Assembly: GCA_963716205.1 (NCBI GenBank)
Contig: OY970290.1
Location: forward strand, 584,823-648,822
Length of the DNA: 64,000 nt
Source: an uncultured bacterium
GTDB lineage: Bacteria > Patescibacteriota > Minisyncoccia > Phycocordibacterales > GWA1-40-21
Reading direction: 5' to 3'
Below, piece by piece: positions 28,460 to 44,388 of the stretch (its first letter is position 1; the number at the start of each line of letters is the position of its first letter). Both the position numbers and the translations under genes were made by a program. The notes beneath the pieces were generated by a model that saw nothing but the letters and a program-made list of their open reading frames with translations, did not search any database and was not told where the DNA came from.

Positions 28460-28533
28460 GCGCGTGTAGCTCAGCTGGTCAGAGCGCGAAGCTTATACCT
28501 TCGTGGTCCCTGGTTCGAATCCAGGCACGCGCA
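28460..28533 (+). tRNA. tRNA-Ile (anticodon TAT/UAU)
   Basis: gcgcgtgtagctcagctggtcagagcgcgaagCTTATACcttcgtggtccctggTTCGAATccaggcacgcgca. It folds as a clean cloverleaf with U33, anticodon U34-A35-U36 and A37. Confidence 0.7.
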
Positions 28534-28556
28534 CAAAATAAAGGCTATTTTTCTAC

Positions 28557-31613: not shown

Positions 31614-32017
31614 GGGGATGATCGGCCTAGACAATTGACCAATTATCCGTGCGGCAAAGTGGAGCAACCTTGTGAACTCCTAAATCTATCAAGGAAACTG
31701 TAAATGCTAAAAACATTTCTCAAAAAGTAGCGGGCGTTGCATCACCATTTATGGCGACCGTTCCTACTTTCGCTTACGCATTAGCCTAAGCGACATGTCA
31801 CCTGCTGACGTCTGATAGGTAGCGCGATGTGTAATATTTTCAGAATATATTTTATGAGTTCTCGGCGTAAAATGAAATTAGAGAATCGGATTATAAACAT
31901 TTTGTTTATTTCAAGTTTATAATCTTAAATTTGTCTTCGGACAAAAATAAATAAACTAGACTTTGTAGAAGCACTGCTAATAATCATTTGCACGGCGGTT
32001 CGATTCCGCCCATCTCC
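31614..32017 (+). ncRNA. ssrA: tmRNA (ssrA)
   Basis: Begins GGGGAUG and ends ...GGCGGUUCGAUUCCGCC-CAUCUCC-A. The 7-bp acceptor pairs 5' GGGGAUG with 3' CAUCUCC and includes the G3:U70 Ala identity pair. There is an internal ORF ...gct tac gca tta gcc TAA (...FAYALA*). It lies directly after smpB. Confidence 0.75.
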
Positions 32018-32912
32018 ACATACACGCTATTTGAGCCGCGCGATCGATAAAAGGCGACTCTATTCCTGCATATTCACTCGGTTCGAGTCGTGGACTTTCA
32101 GATCGTATACCATTCATTGTTTCGTCAATCAGCAAGAACGGTTTGAGCAATACAGCGCTTAGTTTTTTGTCCTTCAGTGTCCAGTTCGAGACAAAATACT
32201 CGACTATCTTTTTTTGGCTTATAAGGTCTCCTTTTTTAAACCACATCTTGGAATGATGGGCAAAAACAAAGATATTTTTTAGGGAGTCTTCCCAGTTTTC
32301 CTCTCGGCCTTTTGCCTTTTTCATCCACTTTAGGGCCTCGTCCCGTTCCGTTTCCAGTTTCTTTCTCCGGTCCAAATATTCCTTGTCGGTAATTAGTTCA
32401 CGAATTCTCATATCTGTAAGGACCTCTATAGATTTTTGGGCTTTGTCATGAACTCCTTCGAGGTTCCCCATCCTAACCTTAAGGGTTTCATTATCCGTTT
32501 GCCGAATACGTTCAATCCCTTGGCGCACCCAGAATACGAAGCGTTTCGGAATATGAATTCGTTCCAAGAAGTCAGCAATTTGAGCTTTTAGACTTGGAAG
32601 GGTGATCGAAGATTGAGAACACTTGTTCTTGCCCTTCTTATTTGTGCAGTGATAATAGGTGTAGGAACGAGTTTCACCAGTACCCTTGATGAGTTTTGTT
32701 TTTTCTTCCGCCGTAACCATGTAACCGCATTCCCCGCAACGAATGGTTCCCGTGAAAGCGAATTCGTGGGTCTTGGGGCGAGGCTTTCCTTCGCGCCCTA
32801 GAATTTCCTGCACCCAGTCAAATTCATCTTGCGAGACCAGGCGCTTATATTTATGGGGATATGCTTCCCCTTTTCTTTTCATAAGACCGCAATAGAATGG
32901 GTTTGTGAACAT
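31977..32912 (-). pseudogene. large serine recombinase remnant: C-terminal recombinase tail, zinc beta-ribbon and coiled coil only; no resolvase catalytic domain
   Basis: ...NPFYCGLMKRKGEAYPHKYKRLVSQDEFDWVQEIL... then IRCGECGYMVTAEEK...YTYYHCTNKKGKNKC (zinc ribbon) and a coiled coil. The ORF 3' end overlaps the tmRNA 3' end by about 40 nt (stop at 31977, tmRNA ends 32017). No in-frame catalytic domain exists upstream. Confidence 0.5.
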
Positions 32913-36472: not shown

Positions 36473-37429
36473 TCAGTGTTTCGAATATGGCCCTAAGAAT
36501 CGGGTTCCATTGAAGTGAATCATGTGGGAAGGATTTTCCGCAACCCATACTTCGGTTTCCCACGCAATCACGGAGAGGTATTTCGTCATTATTGATTTCG
36601 TCGGGAACGCAGTCACAAACACGAGTCCTGCCGTGCAGCCTGAAAACATTTTCTTGAGTTCTTCATGCCGCTTGGCATCCATCGGTCCATGACTTGTTAC
36701 CGACTCCACGAGGACCAGCCAGTTTTTATCAGGATAATAAATTACAACATCAGGCATTTTCCCGTGGGAATCAACAGTAACACCGAGCTTCGCCAATGAC
36801 TTTTCATCAAAAGATGCCCACTTCTTACCAGTATCACCCACATAGACAACTTGAGCGCCGGGGACGAAACGAGAACCAAACTCTTCCACGATAGCCTTGA
36901 TAAGCTGGCTATGTTCCCCAGGACTTAGTTTGATCTCATTACCAGGAGTAATCTTTAAGGCTACTTGTTTCAAATCACGTTCTGCCGCATATTTTTTCGC
37001 CAACTCTGTTTTTATCAAAAGGTATTCTTTAACCTTTTTACTCCACCGCGAAGTGCCGTAACTTTTTACTAACTCAAACGCTTCCGGGGAAATCTGATAT
37101 ACCGCTTTGGGGCTATTTACCGAACGTTCAGGTTCATCGGGGTTATACATAGCAAGTCCAGCTTGGACAAATTGATGGATAGTAAAACGACGAAATGTCT
37201 CTCTGCTGTTGGGAGCATATTTTTTTCCATATGCCTTCAAACTAAAGTCCATCATGGGCGTAATGCCCATGAGTGGCGTAGATGCGTCCTTCCACTCCGT
37301 AGTTTTCTTTAGATTGAGCAAAGCCAAAAGGCAAAGTGCCGACCGCTCATTTATCTGTTCTTTCGGCATTCCAACTTCAGTGAGGATCTTTAACGCATCT
37401 TCGATATGTTCGTGTTGTTTTTTGTTCAT
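36473..37429 (-). CDS. type II restriction endonuclease (PstI/BsuBI-family-like, inferred)
   Basis: 318 aa. Its start overlaps the stop of the upstream DNA methyltransferase by 4 nt (ATGA). The size and N-terminal wHTH-like region fit the BsuBI/PstI family. The assignment rests mainly on context. Confidence 0.45.
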   Translation of the reverse strand: MNKKQHEHIEDALKILTEVGMPKEQINERSALCLLALLNLKKTTEWKDASTPLMGITPMMDFSLKAYGKKYAPNSRETFRRFTIHQFVQAGLAMYNPDEPERSVNSPKAVYQISPEAFELVKSYGTSRWSKKVKEYLLIKTELAKKYAAERDLKQVALKITPGNEIKLSPGEHSQLIKAIVEEFGSRFVPGAQVVYVGDTGKKWASFDEKSLAKLGVTVDSHGKMPDVVIYYPDKNWLVLVESVTSHGPMDAKRHEELKKMFSGCTAGLVFVTAFPTKSIMTKYLSVIAWETEVWVAENPSHMIHFNGTRFLGPYSKH

Positions 37430-38904
37430 TGGATTGATTTTACCATTTTATCAACATCTCCCTGATTAGCAGTTCTATTCGATTTTGCCATTTTGCCGAG
37501 AACTCTGAGCGCTTCAATCGGTGGATATTTCAAAGAGCGAAGATCGGTCGCATTTACTTGCGTATGTCCGTTGAATTCCCTGAAATATTTGTCAACACCA
37601 GATGAGTTCAAATACATCGTTAGACCCCGCGCTACATTTTCTTCAAGGCCTGTTTTCTTAATGTGAAAAACATTTAGATGGTTTTCAAAACCAAGTCTTT
37701 TGGCTTTAATTTCTTTGGGCGAAAGAAGAGCTGCGCTTATACGCTTTTTCTCCTCTTTGGAAGAAAACCTTTTTACCAAAACATAAAACCCTTTTGGAAA
37801 AAGCATTTTTTTCGTTTCATCGTCTAGTGAGATGGCATTAGATTTTCGGATCTCTTTTTTGGGCCATTTCACTGAGTTACCATCAAAGTGCGCTGGATAC
37901 AATAGTGGAGCATCACCTTTTAAAGGCATTTTGTGAAGATTGTCTTTTATACGAAAATCAACCACCGGCCCCGTCGATACTTCTATACCAATTTCTTTGA
38001 GACTACATTTGTCAGTATTCGAGTTTTCCAATGAATTCTTTTTGATTTCAGTAGGAATATGGATGAACGATTCCTCATCCAACGGATTAAGGATTTGTCC
38101 AATATCACATTTGAATTGTTTCAAGTCTGAAAATGAAGAGTCGGAAGATATTGAAATTAAAACTTCTTTTGAAATCCGTCCTTTAACCAAATGGAAAATA
38201 ACGTTTTCTTGAAGAACTCCGTCATCCTTGAATGCCCGTTTCCTTGAATCAAATAAATGAATAGTTTTAATCGCCGTTTTCTTAAGTAAAGATTTTCGAA
38301 ACGATCTGTAGTAAGGGCCGTTGCAAAAACTTCGAGGAATGATAACTACTAATTCGCCACCTTTCGCCATTTTATTTACTGCCACTTCTACGAAGGCAGA
38401 ATAAAGATTCACTGTCTCTATTCCCATTGTTCGAAGCATTTCTCTATGTTCAGAATCACTGTGAATTTTCTTGTAAGGAGGGTTTAGGATCGCATGAGTA
38501 TAGTTTGGTGATTCTGATTTCCATGAATTTCTTACCGCATCAACAATGAAATCATCGTTGTAAATTCGATATTCAAAACGACCATTGGATTTGTTCTTTT
38601 GAAAACTGTTAAAATTATTTTTGAGATACGCCGCTAAGTCGTTGTCTATTTCAAATGCATCAACATATATTTTGGGCTTTAGTCTCTTAAGAGAACTCCA
38701 TCTTTCAAGAAAAGCGAATGTTAAGGAACCGATACCTGCACCCGCATCAAGTAATTTGATTTCCCTATTGGTAAACTTGGAAAAAAGTGACGCCATGAAT
38801 GCGCCCACAGGAGCAGGTGTCATAAACTGACCAAGTGCCGACTTTACCACCGGGTCAAGTGCCTTAGAAACCTCTTGCCTTTTTTGGTCAACTATTTGGA
38901 GCAT
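37426..38904 (-). CDS. N6-adenine DNA methyltransferase, gamma class (M.PstI/BsuBI/Eco57I-like)
   Basis: Motif I LDAGAGIGSLT precedes motif IV NPPY (AILNPPYKKI), and a large C-terminal target recognition domain follows. Confidence 0.75.
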   Translation of the reverse strand: MLQIVDQKRQEVSKALDPVVKSALGQFMTPAPVGAFMASLFSKFTNREIKLLDAGAGIGSLTFAFLERWSSLKRLKPKIYVDAFEIDNDLAAYLKNNFNSFQKNKSNGRFEYRIYNDDFIVDAVRNSWKSESPNYTHAILNPPYKKIHSDSEHREMLRTMGIETVNLYSAFVEVAVNKMAKGGELVVIIPRSFCNGPYYRSFRKSLLKKTAIKTIHLFDSRKRAFKDDGVLQENVIFHLVKGRISKEVLISISSDSSFSDLKQFKCDIGQILNPLDEESFIHIPTEIKKNSLENSNTDKCSLKEIGIEVSTGPVVDFRIKDNLHKMPLKGDAPLLYPAHFDGNSVKWPKKEIRKSNAISLDDETKKMLFPKGFYVLVKRFSSKEEKKRISAALLSPKEIKAKRLGFENHLNVFHIKKTGLEENVARGLTMYLNSSGVDKYFREFNGHTQVNATDLRSLKYPPIEALRVLGKMAKSNRTANQGDVDKMVKSIQ

Positions 38905-39114: not shown

Positions 39115-40627
39115 ATGACGATTCCAAATTACATCACGCCAATCACGAAGATCCACTCTACTTTCAAAGAAGCCAAAGGTTTTTTTGATACGTATGGGGG
39201 TATATCGATCTTTGATGACGAGCCGAGACTCGATGTTGTAGCTCTCACGCAAGGAAAGCGCAATCTCGTGGTAGGCGAGCCCGGTGTCGGTAAAAGCCTG
39301 TTGCTTCAGGTCGTCAAAGAACATCTTGATCAAGAGAAATATGCCACTGCCATCATTAGCCTTCGTGATCCAGATGCAATTAAACAAATAGACGAATTTT
39401 TGAATTCTCCTTTCCAAACCCAAAAAACCTTACTACTTGATGCACTCGATGAAGTTAAGGCGAACTTATTTCCATCGCTACTCCAAAAAATCGAAGACAT
39501 TTCTGCTAAATATCCGGACATTTCGATTTTTCTCTCCTGTAGGTGGGTATTCATCAGTCGATATACAAATTCATTTCCCGCATTTCGCTTCATCACAATT
39601 TCTCCTTTTACCCGCAGACAAGTAAAAATGTATCTCATTGGGTCTCCAATTTTTTGGTGATCCAACAGTCATTGACGAATTGCCCGATCTCACTAATTCG
39701 GAAGAACTGATACTCACAAGCCAATATAAGCGGTGGGAAGAAGAACAATCCAAAACTGCATCAAATAACACGGAAGAAACTGCTGAAGAGCTTTTGAAAG
39801 AATTTCGTACTTTACTTGAACCCGAACCGGGAAAATTTAAAACTAATGTGTTTCAATTCTACAATAGACATTCGAATGAAATTACTTCACGACTTACAGA
39901 TAATGATCGCGAGCGAATTATAAATCTTCTTTCAAATACAGTTTTTAAATTCATGGACCCAGGCCAATACGGTATCACAATCACTTCAGAAAAAAACGGT
40001 TCACACACTTTCACCGTAGCTGACACGATACATATTTTTGGTGATGCAATCGTGACCGCGGAACACATCGGAATGAACATAACTCCCTTTCGACAACAAA
40101 TTCTCAATTTCATACCGTTTACATTTGGAGATAATCTGACCACCATCTTTAATTTGGTGAAAAACATTCGGCCCGAAGAAATGACACCCATTATTGAAGT
40201 TTATCGAAAACGTCATTCAGATTTGTGGCGGCATAACCCCCATAGTTTTGTTAAAGCTGTGGAGCAGTATCACATCTCAGAAGCCATACCTGTTTTGAAA
40301 ACCTTGATATTTGAATCAAAATGGGAAATGCAAGTTAGAAATGCCGCCTTACCAGTGATCGATTCCCTTGCACCAGATATAGATTTTCTTAGACAAGTCG
40401 TCGCAAGGTACAAAGATAGTACAGATAACGAAGAGAAAAAATTAGCAGACATCGCGAATGGTTTGCTCATTACTAACTATGCTGATGCTGACGCAGTGCA
40501 TTGGCGTTTAAAAAAAATCGTTGAGCGAGCAGCCGCCTTCATTAAGCCGAGAGGACCGCACGCGCATATGGTAGGCGGCTTGGAGGAAGAAATTTCATTT
40601 GGAAAGACATTTGCAAAACCGTTATAG
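39115..40627 (+). pseudogene. STAND/NACHT-like P-loop NTPase, split by a +1 frameshift in a T6 run (39650-39655) into a 181-aa NTPase part and a 329-aa C-terminal part
   Basis: Walker A VVGEPGVGKSLLL, Walker B LLLDALDEV, and a sensor-like SCR. ORF1 ends ...IGSPIFW*. ORF2 continues in the +1 frame from a TTG. Deleting one T fuses them into a protein of about 510 aa. Confidence 0.45.
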
Positions 40628-40815
40628 ATAATGCTGGAGCTAAAAACATGATCGGCATCAAAGAAGCTTTCCAAAACATAAAAGGTGTATGGGTTTTGTC
40701 GTTTAACTGCCACGATAGTGTGACAGCCCAAAAGAAGAAAAAGGTCCTAAAAACAAAAAAACGAGCTGACCATACCGGTCAGCGTAGAAAGAAGTAGCAT
40801 ATTCGAGTGTAGATA

Positions 40816-41325
40816 CTATCTTTCGTCCACTACTCGAAATTTTCTAGGTATATCAGATGGTCGTGCATATCGTTCGGAACGTGGACCATTTACGGTTTCA
40901 TCTAACGCCTTTGCGCCAGGTCTCGTTCCCCGTCTTTCAAGAGCGTTAATCTTTTTCGCTTGTTCCCTAATCCTGACGAACGAAAGATTTATCTCGATGT
41001 GCGTGCCTTTGTCATTCCTGCATGAATAGGAATCATAGATAAATTTCTTGTCAAAATACGGATATAAAATACGATAAATCACATGATGCAGAAGTCTGTC
41101 TCGCACGACCGCCTTGTGTATGCTTCTCGGTTTCGGATCGTTGATAGCAAATGCTTTATAGCCGGAATGAACGTATGTTTTGTTTTTCAAATCATCATGC
41201 AGACTTGCAATATTTTTTGAGAGTTGAAGCGCATATTCTGCCACATCATTTTTATATCGTTTGTCAGAAACAAATTCCCGCCATGCTTGGTGAATATTTG
41301 TCAGAGATATGATAGTATCGTACAT
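40816..41325 (-). pseudogene. DGR-type reverse transcriptase, N-terminal fragment (motifs 1-2 only; no YxDD)
   Basis: MYDTIISLTNIHQAWREFVSDKRYKNDVAEYALQLSKNIASLHDDLKNKTYVHSGYKAFAINDPKPRSIHKAVVRDRLLHHVIYRILYPYFDKKFIYDSYSCRNDKGTH follows the DGR/retron RT pattern (...FRDRVVHHAL...SYACRKGKGTH). After this point the ORF diverges and stops, and a terminator hairpin lies at 40758-40782. Confidence 0.6.
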
Positions 41326-41360
41326 GTTGGAAAAAATACTATACCACAAAAATACCATGA

Positions 41361-41732
41361 ATGTTGCCCCCCCCCCGCAAATCGCCAGTTGTCGTTGCAA
41401 AAGAAAAAGAAGCGTATCAATTTTGGCTTAGTCTCCACAGAAATTTTCCCAAGTCTGAACGCTTTGGTATCGGACAGAAAATAGAAAATACGTTTTTAGA
41501 CATTTTAGAATATAGCTTTGCATCAGTGTATCTGTCGCCGGAACCGAAAATTATCTTGCTCACAAAGACAATATCAAAACTAGATACCTTGAAATTCTTT
41601 GTTCAGCTTGCTTGGGAAAGTAAACTGATACCGGAAGAAAAATACATTGAATTTTCTGAAAAATTAGAGGAAATTGGAAAAATGCTCGGCGGATGGAAAC
41701 GCGGATTGCAACAAAAAACTCCCGCCAAATAG
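41361..41732 (+). CDS. avd: Avd-like four-helix-bundle protein (DGR accessory variability determinant)
   Basis: ...FPKSERFGIGQKIENTFLDILEYSFASVY... and ...KLDTLKFFVQLAWESKLIPEEKYIEFSEKLEEIGKMLGGW match the four-helix-bundle (23S rRNA IVS protein / bAvd) family. It sits between the TR and the RT gene on the opposite strand. A C10 run lies at 41367-41376, right after the start codon. Confidence 0.55.
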   Translation: MLPPPRKSPVVVAKEKEAYQFWLSLHRNFPKSERFGIGQKIENTFLDILEYSFASVYLSPEPKIILLTKTISKLDTLKFFVQLAWESKLIPEEKYIEFSEKLEEIGKMLGGWKRGLQQKTPAK

Positions 41733-41750
41733 ACGGGAGAAAATGAATGA

Positions 41751-41866
41751 GTTTCGGAACCACGATCCGATGCCTGTTCTCGGCATTCCAGACGTTGTCG
41801 TTCGACAAACGATTGACGTTCACGTTGAGCCCATCGGAGTTCACGTTCACGTTCGCCACGAAATTT
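41751..41866 (-). repeat. DGR template repeat (TR), 116 nt
   Basis: Near-identical to 42204-42319. On the minus (sense) strand it encodes NFVANVNVNSDGLNVNVNRLSNDNVWNAENRHRIVVPKL with 10 AAY Asn codons. Confidence 0.7.
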
Positions 41867-42199
41867 TGTGCAATGTTCCTCCTATTCCACCATCCGCCAA
41901 ACCATGACAGATTGTATCTTATGCGGGACCTCAAAGTCCTCTGAAATATTGCACCAACTTTATTTATTTTTATAAGATATCCGTATCATCCACTCTTTTA
42001 CAAGACGTATCCGGTAAAATTCTCAAACGATACAGACATGCAATTGCAGTCTCAAGCCGTAGCCGGAGACATCTAGAATTGCTTTTTCATTATATATGAA
42101 AAATAAAAAATTAAAATAAAAAACCCCTCGATCCTGCTTGCGCAAAATCGAAGGGTCAAAGTGTCCAAGTCCCAAAGGGACAAGAACGAAGTGTTGAAG

Positions 42200-42922
42200 T
42201 TACAGTTGCGGAACCACGACCCGAGGCCTGTACCCGGCATCCCAGACGTAGTCGTAAGACAAACGAAAGACGTGCACGTAGAGCCCATCGGAGTACACGT
42301 CCACGTCCGCCACGAAATAATCCTTCCCAACTTTGAAGAGGAAGAAAGTTCCGTAACCATCGGTACGAAGCCACTTGGCGTGCTTCTTGCAGAACTGCTT
42401 GATCTGGGCCTGAGTCAGACACAGACGATCGAGGTTTTCTCCAAAACTTCCGAAGATCGCCTTGAAGTCGCCGTCCTGCGTCATCTCAAACACGTGGGTT
42501 TTCACCCGCTTGGTCGCTTCAGCCGGAACATCAAGACCCCAGTTTTTGAAGTCGGAGTCGATATAATCGGGGAAAACGTCCTTGGCGTTCGCGATAGTTT
42601 CCGTGCCGTCTGTCGGATCAAGAACGGTGTCCTTGCCGAGAGAAATGCACGTGAGATGGCTGGTTTTGAGCTCGATGGATTCGGCAAAGAATTTTTCCAT
42701 CGCATCCTCGATCGCCGAATTGAGCTTGCCATCCGCTTGAATCCGCTGAACAGCCGATCTGTCGAGGGCTTTCGAAAACTTGCTAACCGCCCTCTTTACC
42801 CCTCTTCGTCCGGCTTTCTCGCCCCGACTCACGAGATCCTTCATCTGCTCGGATGTAATCAATGACTTAGCCATTGTTATCATCCTCCTTTTCTGAATTT
42901 TACTTCGCGTGGTTTTCACCAC
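42200..42922 (-). CDS. DGR target protein; VR at extreme C-terminus (CLec/FGE-like tail ...GYRPRVVVPQL)
   Basis: 240 aa. The last 38 aa (YFVADVDVYSDGLYVHVFRLSYDYVWDAGYRPRVVVPQL*) are encoded by the VR. Confidence 0.55.
   Translation of the reverse strand: MVKTTRSKIQKRRMITMAKSLITSEQMKDLVSRGEKAGRRGVKRAVSKFSKALDRSAVQRIQADGKLNSAIEDAMEKFFAESIELKTSHLTCISLGKDTVLDPTDGTETIANAKDVFPDYIDSDFKNWGLDVPAEATKRVKTHVFEMTQDGDFKAIFGSFGENLDRLCLTQAQIKQFCKKHAKWLRTDGYGTFFLFKVGKDYFVADVDVYSDGLYVHVFRLSYDYVWDAGYRPRVVVPQL
42204..42319 (-). repeat. DGR variable repeat (VR), 116 nt
   Basis: 17 mismatches against the TR. 16 of them lie at positions where the TR sense strand has A. Confidence 0.7.
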
Positions 42923-43271
42923 AGCTTTGAATTGACCTGTTGGATCAGCTCAAAGCTGTAGTGAAATACAACTGTTTTTAAGGTTCTTATCTACTTACAA
43001 TTGTACACCTTTTTAATATATCTGTCAAGAATAGCTATACTCCCTTAGAAATAAGCTAGATTTGGCTATGATACTACATATTTTTTCAGATCCGGAATAT
43101 AAATATACCTATTCTCTTCCTGAAAAATCGTACGGACTGCCATCACGGTGTCCCACATTAAAAAATAAACTCATATTCATAAATATGAGTTTATTTTTTT
43201 AAAATCTTGACACCAATATAATATATGTGTTAGTATTCTAACAAGTTGCTCTTACAAAAAAGGAGAACCGC

Positions 43272-43505
43272 ATGTCTATTCACACAGGTCAGCTCATCAA
43301 GACAACTGAAACACTTGGGGATTTGAAAAATGCCCATGTTGCAGAAAAACATATTCGAGCTCGCACACCGAATTGTTTTGGAACCGTATTTTCTGAACGG
43401 CCAAAGGAAAGGCTTGTCTATGTTAAACATGTAAACAAGCCTGATCTCGCCGTGTATGAACGCGGTGAATTATCTTCAGCCGAACAATTTTTGCAGGTTT
43501 CTTAA
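43272..43505 (+). CDS. hypothetical protein
   Basis: 77 aa. A TTGACA-17-TGnTAGTAT promoter-like element lies at about 43206-43240 and a terminator follows. Confidence 0.3.
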   Translation: MSIHTGQLIKTTETLGDLKNAHVAEKHIRARTPNCFGTVFSERPKERLVYVKHVNKPDLAVYERGELSSAEQFLQVS

Positions 43506-43519
43506 GAAATAAGCCCTGC

Positions 43520-43556
43520 AAAAAACCGCCCGACACAATGTCCGGCGGTTTTTTAT
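43520..43556 (+). terminator. Rho-independent terminator
   Basis: accgcccgaca-caat-gtccggcggt followed by a T-run. Confidence 0.55.
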
Positions 43557-43674
43557 TATATTTTTCATTACGTAAGGGAAAAATAAGAATATCCACAGCT
43601 ATTGACAATATTAATATAATGATATAAAATATAAATAAAGCTGTTCTTCGTAAATTTAAAAAACGAGGTGGAGT

Positions 43675-44388
43675 GTGAAAAACATTTTCATGCTGTTCCT
43701 GCTGACGTTTAGCGTTTTGTCCACCGGCTGCATTTATAGAGTGGTCTATGGACCAAGAGTCTATGACATTTATGGACAAGACACTCCTGCTGCCGCGAGA
43801 ATTCGTTTTTATCAGCAACATCCAGAATTTAAGGATGATGTGATAGATGATGGAATAACGGGCATTGTGCCGGGACCAAATGGCTGGATAATTAGTCATC
43901 ATAAAAAAGATGCTAGTCCTGCCGTTCCCCGTCCTCAAAGCTTAAAGCCTGCAGTTAAAGCTAGAGAATGGGTAAATGTTCCTGATGGATATTTTCAGCC
44001 GCCGCTCGATGGTCCAATTGAAATCAATTGGAAAAAAGGACTTCATGGCAAGGGAAACACCGGCTATGATTTGTTCGCCAAAAAAGGATCGCGTGTCAAA
44101 TCGTCGGCTGCCGGCAAAGTAATTGTTGCATCAACGGGATGGAATGATGGATCGGGATATTTGATCCGGATTTTACATCCGAATGGAACCATTACGGCTT
44201 ATTGCCACCTTTCCCAAATTGATGTTTGGAAAGGACAAGAAGTTTTCCAAGGACAAACCATAGGACTCTCTGGAAACAGCGGAAACGTAAGCAGTGATTG
44301 CGGTGGAGATGGATCTCACCTGCATTTTGCGGTTTACTATACGGAAAATCCAGCTCCAAAATGGGAGTCGCGTTACGCTTCTCGTTAA
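43675..44388 (+). CDS. M23-family peptidase lipoprotein
   Basis: Lipobox LSTGC, LytM motifs ...HxxxD... and SHLHFAV. Confidence 0.7.
   Translation: MKNIFMLFLLTFSVLSTGCIYRVVYGPRVYDIYGQDTPAAARIRFYQQHPEFKDDVIDDGITGIVPGPNGWIISHHKKDASPAVPRPQSLKPAVKAREWVNVPDGYFQPPLDGPIEINWKKGLHGKGNTGYDLFAKKGSRVKSSAAGKVIVASTGWNDGSGYLIRILHPNGTITAYCHLSQIDVWKGQEVFQGQTIGLSGNSGNVSSDCGGDGSHLHFAVYYTENPAPKWESRYASR

Follow-up and report, generated by a model that had tools for sequence, protein, structure and literature searches.

A chromosomal diversity-generating retroelement of the CPR type with a truncated reverse transcriptase gene in a Patescibacteria genome

The region between positions 40816 and 43028 of the window (the whole 64-kb stretch of DNA analysed here) harbours a genuine diversity-generating retroelement (DGR) of the type common in CPR bacteria, complete save for its reverse transcriptase (RT) gene, which has lost its catalytic two-thirds together with all the catalytic motifs. 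We are largely confident that this is a chromosomal element of the CPR lineage arranged in the standard order, whose RT gene was cut, probably in recent times, and whose variable repeat is frozen unless an RT is supplied in trans. DGRs of this kind are known and abundant in CPR bacteria, this copy being an ordinary one that is either recently disabled or helper-dependent.

Repeat pair and target gene

The template repeat (TR, 41750-41867) and the variable repeat (VR, 42204-42321) are both placed on the minus strand, measure 118 nt each and are offset by 454 nt. Repeat detection yielded a single direct repeat of 115 nt (41750-41864 and 42204-42318, 86% identity, spacing 454), and an ungapped comparison over a 141-nt test stretch favoured register 454 over 453 by 103 matches against 36. 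The first copy, mapped to 41751-41866 in the initial annotation, is thus to be shifted by one nucleotide to 41750-41865. In this register the recount reproduced exactly the mismatch pattern described earlier: 17 differences between 41750-41865 and 42204-42319, 16 of them at a plus-strand T of the first copy, i.e. a coding-strand A. The sole exception within these 116 nt, correctly reported as a plus-strand C in the first copy, was located at 41803 (C to A; G to T in the sense strand), beside a mutated adenine. Upon extension of the comparison to 41867 (118 nt), 17 out of 18 mismatches fall on TR adenines, with a hypergeometric p of 1.3e-10 for the 33 plus-strand T residues of the TR. The same TR/VR geometry recurs in 46 related loci, where the repeats are 111-127 nt long and 425-535 nt apart, mismatches affect adenines almost exclusively and 0-3 non-A mismatches are counted in almost all cases. 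The reading of the adenine-restricted divergence as a DGR signature is therefore well founded, and the VR bears the imprint of past mutagenic homing events.

Translated in the VR frame the TR reads NFVANVNVNSDGLNVNVNRLSNDNVWNAENRHRIVVPKL and contains 11 AAY codons; the ORF in which it is embedded (41560-41934) had no match in a family-library search. The two repeats part at their ends, the TR finishing in CCGAAACT and the VR in CCGCAACTG, here as in the majority of the 46 loci, and the Gln codon at the VR end is invariant across the target protein family. This fixed, family-wide difference is consistent with an IMH-like marker of putative function, comparable to the IMH and IMH* pair at the corresponding 3' ends in the DGR of Bordetella phage BPP-1.

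As anticipated in the initial annotation, the VR forms the final 38 codons of the ORF 42200-42922, but the length of 240 aa assigned to its product is probably too large, since an ATG at 42874, placed 9 nt after a GGAGG motif, is the likely true start. The target gene would thus span 42200-42874 on the minus strand and encode 224 aa plus stop, the identical gene being called in the Logan contig L084. The encoded protein is helical in its N-terminal part, and the VR falls in a C-terminal domain about 155 aa long. On the basis of sequence comparison, it is a member of a large unannotated Patescibacteria family, with 477 homologues retrieved, none of them carrying a Pfam domain, and its members fall into 2,540 clusters at 50% identity; the columns in which the family is hypervariable correspond to the A-containing codons of the TR. 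Searches of the target against Pfam and NCBIfam gave no match, and neither a transmembrane segment nor a known domain was found in it, a trait shared with the targets of the CPR DGR clade, which have been reported to lack both. AlphaFold modelled the protein with high confidence (pLDDT 92.9 for the whole target and 95.5 for the C-terminal domain). The modelled C-terminal domain is only weakly similar to C-type lectin folds, the fold of the DGR variable proteins Mtd, TvpA (2y3c), AvpA and TaqVP. Neither Foldseek against the PDB nor a profile-based comparison with PDB sequences gave a positive result. The proposed CLec/FGE-like character of the tail is retained as a weak likeness of the predicted model.

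Several putative signals flank the target gene on the same strand. A consensus scan identified a promoter-like pattern upstream, TTGACA-17-TACAAT, at 43000-43028 (11/12 matching positions), and a predicted intrinsic terminator at 42122-42157, made of a 16-bp stem and a T run, occupies a position conserved in related loci. Between the latter and the VR, the short hairpin GTCCC-TTT-GGGAC (42170-42182) begins 22 nt past the end of the TR/VR homology, a candidate counterpart of the hairpin that follows the VR in BPP-1. Comparable hairpins were found in 16 of 47 family loci versus 15% of shuffled sequences, which does not support a universal post-VR hairpin in the family.

Template RNA and gene order in the family

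The stretch between the target gene and the TR would belong to a dedicated transcription unit. Directly after the target terminator there is a -10-like box, TATAAT (42089-42094, minus strand), and either TATAAT or TATACT is aligned with it in 41 of the 46 loci, 23 of which have a TG in front. Next, and 5' of the TR, comes a leader of some 215 nt (41868-42082, minus strand), predicted to fold into helices P1 (42082-42040), P2 (42037-41979) and P3 (41954-41868, with inner hairpins at 41939-41926 and 41912-41892). Covariation over the 46 loci supports this structure throughout the family: RNAalifold predicted 72 base pairs, 55 of which show compensatory changes; 93.4% of the cells are paired, as compared to 41-51% when the partners are slid; double-change cells number 585 versus 90-136 in the slid controls; and none of 500 shuffles reached the observed covariation values. 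The single-sequence fold of the leader has a z of -5.1, and an Rfam search with the TR RNA assigned it to no family, with nothing meaningful up to E = 1. On the other side, 10 nt after the TR, a terminator scan identified the hairpin CTCCCG...CGGGAG and the T run behind it (41719-41739, minus strand) as the putative 3' end of this RNA; it overlaps the avd stop codon on the opposite strand, and its flanks (TTTCTC...GAGTTTT) and covarying stem are kept in nearly all loci. From sequence conservation and pattern scans we infer where transcription begins, where the 3' end of the RNA lies and at which site priming occurs.

The order target-VR, TR, inverted avd and RT is the norm among 79 related genome loci, and both this order and the orientation of avd are common to about 45 Patescibacteria loci from different species. 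The cassette is therefore RT-truncated only and not rearranged, as it had been thought to be, the inverted avd between TR and RT being the standard layout of the lineage; the claim of partial decay was borne out by the RT gene, cut after about 127 residues. That DGRs occur in CPR-type genomes had also been pointed out, and the first survey of them is reportedly that of Paul et al. 2017. CPR DGRs form a clade of their own, clade 2 (Roux et al. 2021, PMC8144416), and Wu et al. 2018 (PMC5758913) give architecture B3 for 90% of them. The window cassette displays this CPR-typical B3 order in a Patescibacteria host. It resembles the CPR DGRs of both studies in its chromosomal location, its gene order and its nearest relatives, which for the RT N-terminus, Avd and the target are all found in Patescibacteria MAGs, but differs from them in lacking the catalytic two-thirds of the RT. 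The closest intact relative is represented by two loci from different metagenomes (L001 and L002), which are the same element with 99.96% identity over 4,966 nt and differ in one base at a VR position facing a TR adenine and in the length of a homopolymer, in nothing else; the VR difference may reflect natural activity of that element.

With the BPP-1 DGR (mtd, avd, TR, brt) the cassette shares the adenine-specific transfer from TR to VR, the position of the VR at the 3' end of the target gene and the Avd cofactor. In contrast, avd in BPP-1 lies upstream within one operon, whereas here it is inverted between TR and RT; the element is chromosomal instead of phage-borne, and its target is predicted to be small and soluble, that of the phage being a tail fibre. 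The template RNA also differs, since its conserved structured part precedes the TR and only a short hairpin follows it, whereas in the Bordetella prototype the structured part of the RNA trails the TR (PMC8867640).

The reverse transcriptase fragment and the state of the cassette

The RT ORF (40816-41325, minus strand) encodes 169 aa, of which only the first 127 or so (41325 to about 40945) are RT-like, the last 42 aa having no recognisable relatives. This confirms the N-terminal RT fragment recognised in the initial annotation: it shares 60-74% identity with the N-terminal parts of DGR RTs from Patescibacteria, and 83% with the RT encoded in the intact locus L001. All 343 homologues retrieved match only query residues 1 to about 110-127, and the similarity stops after SYSCRNDKGTH, ahead of the motifs CWVLKCDIRKFF, LPLGN and YADD of full-length relatives. 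Of the profile checks proposed earlier, that on Avd was positive (see below) and that of Pfam RVT_1 on the RT ORF gave no match; the NCBIfam group II RT profile was matched exclusively at positions 23-122 out of 353. Searching the 64-kb window by tblastn with two full-length relative RTs recovered the N-terminal piece alone, and the splitting of the gene by an insertion shorter than about 20-40 kb was rejected on these grounds. The sequence past the breakpoint (about 40945 to 40628), which includes a terminator-like hairpin (40765-40783, minus strand) predicted after the truncated ORF, had no relative in blastn and tblastx comparisons with all the related loci fetched.

Since a complete RT of the DGR clade with RT3-RT7 and YxDD is absent, the locus is an RT-defective derivative rather than an autonomous DGR, and with its catalytic motifs missing the cassette has no means of diversifying by itself. 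The other components look undamaged: the reading frame of the RT N-terminus remains open, avd, likewise intact, is in frame, the leader, the TR and the hairpins are preserved, and a single non-adenine difference separates TR from VR, all of which suggests that the truncation is probably recent. The only other copy of the window locus (L084), possibly from the same sample, is identical, and when metagenomes were scanned with the conserved sequence that follows the VR, the L002 contig was the sole return, with no further copy of the window locus.

Following the Bordetella model and the anatomy of the family, the complete system would operate as follows. A dedicated non-coding RNA would start from the -10 box just after the target terminator and comprise the structured leader, the 118-nt TR and the 3' hairpin with its U run. 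An RT-Avd complex would copy the TR into cDNA with misincorporation opposite adenines, and the cDNA would then replace the VR, thereby recoding roughly twelve A-containing codons, the AAY codons for Asn among them. The recoded residues would be displayed on the beta-rich, C-type-lectin-like domain predicted for the small soluble target.

Alternative explanations of the locus were weighed against this interpretation. Ordinary duplication of a gene segment followed by random drift, without any DGR, accounts for the existence of the repeat and for nothing else, and we give it virtually no credit: the concentration of 17 of the 18 differences on the 33 template adenines, the identical asymmetry in 46 loci, the Avd gene and RT fragment flanking the repeat, and a TR copy devoid of start codon context or family match as a gene all speak against it, the adenine bias and its recurrence being sufficient for its rejection. 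It could also be argued that the RT truncation is an artefact of assembly or sequencing and that the real genome carries a complete DGR, because MAG-derived contigs can be chimeric and the sequence beyond the breakpoint is without relatives in any related locus. However, a Logan contig obtained with a different assembler (run ERR11563597) shows 100% identity along 3,732 nt that include the breakpoint, with the proviso that both assemblies may share reads; the window derives from a contig 682 kb long; and natural decay is evident in relatives, e.g. a frameshifted RT in L003, the loss of the RT N-terminus in L029 and the remnants L065 and L025. An artefact is thus very improbable.

A more serious contender is that the cassette remains active in a non-autonomous manner, with an intact DGR RT encoded elsewhere in the 682-kb genome serving the local TR RNA, or its own near-identical TR, together with the local Avd. 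The intactness of the in-frame avd, TR, leader and hairpins, and the presence of one non-A mismatch only between TR and VR, would fit such a scenario. Remote targets do exist in the family: within one MAG, 12 of the 13 mismatches between the TR of L020 and a matching VR on a different contig (L027) are at adenines, and in the pair L048/L024 this holds for 14 of 15. Furthermore, L065 retains only an RT remnant beside intact avd and TR, with a second RT piece 5 kb away, and yet all of its 17 mismatches are at adenines. Nonetheless, in the trans cases seen it is the VR that is remote, and in none of them does a distant RT act on a foreign TR RNA; no second RT was found in the 64-kb window, and among the best 120 of the 343 RT homologues none is on the same contig besides the fragment itself. 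We therefore regard helper-dependent activity as unlikely, though clearly less so than the preceding alternatives. As it stands, the loss of the RT looks recent, or else an RT acts in trans.

The avd homopolymer and the significance of the locus

The avd gene (accessory variability determinant; 41361-41732, 123 aa) is on the plus strand, opposite to target, TR and RT. Its earlier identification as a four-helix-bundle Avd-like gene was corroborated by matches to Pfam bAvd PF22296 (E 2.4e-15; 57.4 bits, above the cut-off of 40) and NCBIfam DivGenRetAVD (E 1.7e-18; 66.8 bits, below the cut-off of 80), and the product is 89% identical to Avd of the intact locus L001. Codons 3-6 (MLPPPR...) contain a C10 tract (41367-41376, plus strand), the sole G/C run of at least 7 nt in the window, and in 41 of 48 loci a C6-C12 run occupies this place at the beginning of avd, between the start codon and the Avd body. 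At its 3' end the run is locked in frame with avd, and in the window the C10 tract leaves the gene in the ON frame. The upstream ATG is in frame with avd in 12 of 41 loci, the window included, as many as chance would give, and run lengths of 11 and 12 were observed in the otherwise identical copies from two metagenomes.

Phase-variable homopolymers are exemplified by the poly-C of Bordetella fim promoters and by poly-G/C tracts within coding regions of Neisseria; C runs read by tRNA-Pro are slippage-prone as well. Like such tracts, the avd run is a long G/C homopolymer located where a gene begins; its position is conserved, its length varies from species to species and also differs in two copies that are otherwise the same, and the start codon ahead of it is often out of frame. 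It differs from them in that its switching is a candidate property, which may be exerted at the DNA, RNA or ribosome level. The homopolymer may act as a switch, and no report linking homopolymer switching to DGRs was found in the literature searched. It is tempting to speculate, as a tentative and rather doubtful proposal, that a hypermutable C6-C12 gate controls mutagenesis in this Patescibacteria DGR lineage, with the TR forming part of a dedicated structured RNA that has its conserved portion 5' of the template and is absent from Rfam. If true, Avd synthesis, and hence diversification, would depend on slipped-strand changes in DNA, slippage of RNA polymerase or frameshifting by tRNA-Pro.

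DGRs being abundant in CPR bacteria and this copy being defective, a single locus adds little by itself. It is a clean example of the order of decay, the RT having been lost first while RNA, Avd and target are retained. The avd homopolymer bears on how DGR activity is controlled, and the covariation-supported 5' leader on the form that template RNAs take outside the Bordetella model. The confident, weakly lectin-like model bears on the fold of CPR variable proteins, a question concerning more than 2,500 clusters without annotation. Finally, detection pipelines that start from the RT would miss cassettes of this sort, so that frozen or trans-served VRs may be undercounted.

Cassette layout and the TR/VR repeat pair

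The cassette is a true CPR-type diversity-generating retroelement (DGR) whose reverse transcriptase (RT) is truncated, and the initial annotation was right in recognizing a DGR from its adenine-restricted template and variable repeats (TR and VR), its accessory variability determinant (Avd) and its RT N-terminus, to which the layout shared with its family can now be added. A repeat search of the window retrieved one long direct repeat near the place described (41750-41864 and 42204-42318, 86% identical, start-to-start spacing of 454), and a register test favoured offset 454 (103 matches, compared with 36 for 453 and 25 for 455). The repeat pair therefore stands, its first copy having been placed one base off. 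In the corrected register (41750-41865 versus 42204-42319) the 17 reported mismatches were recovered, 16 of them at a plus-strand T of the first copy (A on the minus, coding strand) and the single exception being a plus-strand C at 41803, which adjoins a mutated adenine; ORF translation likewise gave the reported frame for TR and the reported peptide for VR. When the comparison is extended by two bases (TR, 41750-41867; VR, 42204-42321; both on the minus strand), 17 of 18 mismatches fall on the 33 adenines that the 118 nt contain (hypergeometric p = 1.3e-10). The last difference, CCGAAACT in TR versus CCGCAACTG in VR (41750-41757 versus 42204-42211), is the same in most related loci and the Gln encoded there is invariant across the protein family; thus, the count of 16 adenine mismatches holds, one of them being probably no diversification event. 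This end difference looks like a fixed boundary marker comparable to IMH/IMH*, the Bordetella-type markers at the 3' ends of VR and TR, and not like the outcome of random mutagenesis.

Exact look-ups and a scan of genome collections yielded 83 related loci, almost all of them carrying labels such as Patescibacteria, Paceibacteria or Nomurabacteria. The TR/VR pairs of 46 loci measure 111-127 nt and carry 9-28 mismatches, with 0-3 of them outside adenines in almost all, the window with its one non-adenine mismatch being typical. tblastn searches with the target, Avd and RT revealed that about 45 loci share one order: the target (+) is followed, 430-530 nt past VR, by a TR-like piece, then by avd (-) and an RT of 320-340 aa (+). 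An inverted avd is therefore the rule and the cassette is not "rearranged", as had been proposed; this corresponds to architecture B3, which according to Wu et al. (PMC5758913) makes up 90% of CPR DGRs and hardly occurs outside CPR. Decay is also seen among relatives, the RT being frameshifted in locus L003 and lacking its N-terminus in L029, with remnants alone in L065 and L025. In about 30 loci a target-family member stands alone, neither avd nor RT lying within 5 kb. When lone targets of two MAGs were compared with a TR elsewhere in the respective MAG, on a different contig, mismatches fell almost entirely at adenines (12 of 13 for L020/L027, 14 of 15 for L048/L024), which argues that DGRs of this family act on remote paralogous targets. 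The closest intact relative, L001 (89% identical to the window in Avd, 83% in the RT N-terminus), and L002 represent a single element assembled from two metagenomes unrelated to each other, with 99.96% identity across 4,966 nt. They differ in only two respects, the length of a G/C homopolymer and one VR base at a TR-adenine position (5675 in L001, 2990 in L002), the latter supporting natural DGR activity in this closest intact relative.

The truncated RT and the variable target

The RT fragment (40816-41325, minus strand) has 343 homologues, Patescibacteria where named, none of which aligns beyond the first 64-75% of the query. It tracks its full-length relatives through ...KPRSIHKAVVRDRLLHH...SYSCRNDKGTH, and weakly for about 15 residues more, but lacks their motifs CWVLKCDIRKFFASIDH, GLPLGNLTSQ and YADD and all downstream. 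The fragment gave no match to Pfam RVT_1, and on a group II RT profile of 353 positions it matches 23-122 only, versus 24-300 for the 340-aa RT of L001. Searching all 64 kb by tblastn with two full-length RTs gave 41376-40945 as the sole match, and the 42 residues and the DNA past the breakpoint have no relatives in any related locus fetched. A Logan contig (run ERR11563597), possibly built from the same reads, is 100% identical to the window over 40621-44352, breakpoint included. A complete RT, a DGR-defining feature, was tested for and is absent; therefore, we class the cassette as an RT-defective derivative instead of an autonomous DGR. The description "partly decayed" is thus apt for the RT, all other parts being intact, and this integrity, together with the almost complete lack of non-adenine divergence, points to either a recent RT loss or an RT elsewhere in the genome serving the cassette.

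Converging on the truncated RT is a NACHT/STAND-like P-loop gene (39115-40627, plus strand) with a weak match to the antiphage protein EruA; its coding sequence is broken into two frames that overlap (39115-39660 and 39638-40627), and it is probably a pseudogene. Loss of the RT may be connected with turnover in the defence-island-like stretch around this gene. Other features of the window are a tRNA-Ile with anticodon UAU (28460-28534, plus strand), a tmRNA (31614-32021, plus strand; tag AKNISQKVAGVASPFMATVPTFAYALA) and, beside the cassette (36473-38904, minus strand), a restriction-modification pair made up of a PstI/BsuBI-type restriction endonuclease (E 1.9e-65) and an Eco57I/N6-type methyltransferase.

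The 240-aa ORF originally assigned to the target is valid as a maximal ORF, the likely gene being shorter (42874-42200, minus strand; VR at its end): it starts at ATG 42874, 9 nt past GGAGG, and encodes 224 aa, a start likewise called in an independent assembly. A pattern scan placed a promoter-like site upstream (43028-43000, minus strand). Among proteins clustered at 90%, the target has 477 homologues, not one of which bears a Pfam domain or a telling name. Profile searching against 1.84 billion representatives retrieved 2,540 clusters at E <=1e-3 and 1,038 at 1e-30. Some family proteins carry two or three domain copies; P0243 and P0244, from the representative library, are members of 476-560 aa with three VR-type domains. 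The family consensus over the last 40 residues reads FFVAxVxVxSDGLxVxVxRFSxDxVWxAxxRxRVVVPQL, where the x columns are exactly the adenine-containing TR codons. AlphaFold, run on a 56-sequence alignment, predicted a mixed alpha/beta domain preceded by three helices at the N-terminus, with pLDDT 92.9 over the full-length target (residues 70-224 alone: pLDDT 95.5, pTM 0.92). Since neither Foldseek against the PDB nor a profile search of PDB sequences matched this fold, the best description of the modelled domain is either a lectin-like fold that is compact and very divergent or a new fold, in line with the expectation of Roux et al. (PMC8144416) that VR domains in CPR are unrecognised C-type lectin variants. 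The apparent absence of a signal peptide or membrane segment from the target also agrees with their report for this clade. Outside VR, target genes exceed the surrounding DNA in G+C by 8 percentage points on average (75 of 84 loci; 52% versus 42% in the window), unlike avd and RT, which are not G+C-richer.

A structured leader RNA upstream of TR

Reading along the minus strand, VR is followed by a 5-bp hairpin (42182-42170), a strong terminator identified by a terminator scan (42157-42122), a TATAAT box at a conserved position (42094-42089), a conserved leader of about 215 nt (41868-42082), TR itself (41750-41867) and a hairpin with a T run (41739-41719). The hairpin after VR occurs in only 16 of 47 loci versus 15% of shuffles, and the present reading does not rest on it. 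The 3' untranslated region of the target (42122-42200, minus strand, and its equivalents) contains in many loci two to four CCTTTG/CTTTGA-like repeats before the terminator.

The stretch from the target terminator to TR is conserved across 46 species. RNAalifold predicted 72 pairs in the 46 loci, 55 of them with compensatory changes; paired cells amounted to 93.4%, versus 41-51% when partners were slid by 1-3 columns, and double-change cells to 585 versus 90-136, observed values that none of 500 shuffles reached. Covariation extends to seven leader helices and the 3' hairpin but not to the one helix predicted within TR. A TATAAT or TATACT box lies at the same column in 41 of the 46 loci, and the leader of the window retains all helices (fold z = -5.1). 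TR is thus preceded by a structured leader RNA, with a putative -10 box and transcription start of its own; Rfam 15 holds no family matching this leader. In the Bordetella model the structured part is reported to trail TR (PMC8867640), whereas here it lies 5' of TR, with just a short hairpin 3'. It could be speculated that the U run after this 3' hairpin pairs in principle with the AAA of CCGAAACT, which would make it a candidate priming site.

The avd homopolymer

The Avd-like gene proposed in the initial annotation (41361-41732, plus strand) matches Pfam bAvd (E 2.4e-15; 57.4 bits, cut-off 40); against NCBIfam DivGenRetAVD the same ORF scores E 1.7e-18 and 66.8 bits, below the cut-off of 80. 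Its 5' end reads ATG TTG CCC CCC CCC CGC..., with a C10 run (41367-41376, plus strand) that is the sole G/C run of at least 7 in the window. Across 725 kb of related loci, 40 of the 45 G/C runs of at least 8 sit at this very spot, and a run of C6-C12 separates the avd start codon from the Avd body in 41 of 48 loci. The 3' end of the run always keeps the reading frame of the Avd body (PPPR...), and the conserved upstream start is in frame in 12 of 41 loci (10 ATG and 2 GTG or TTG), close to the one third expected if the frame were random. The window's C10 run is in the ON frame, and the homopolymer measures 12 in L001 and 11 in L002.

Avd may be switched on and off by this homopolymer. The frame pattern could stem from phase variation, from slippage during transcription, from tRNA-Pro frameshifting or from consensus errors at homopolymers; translations read by eye showed that most loci lack an alternative start between the C run and the first helix. 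Our literature search found no paper tying DGRs or Avd to homopolymers or frameshifting. CPR-type DGRs are well documented; the features that merit attention here are the RNA leader shared by the family, the fixed difference at the ends of TR and VR and, above all, the avd homopolymer.
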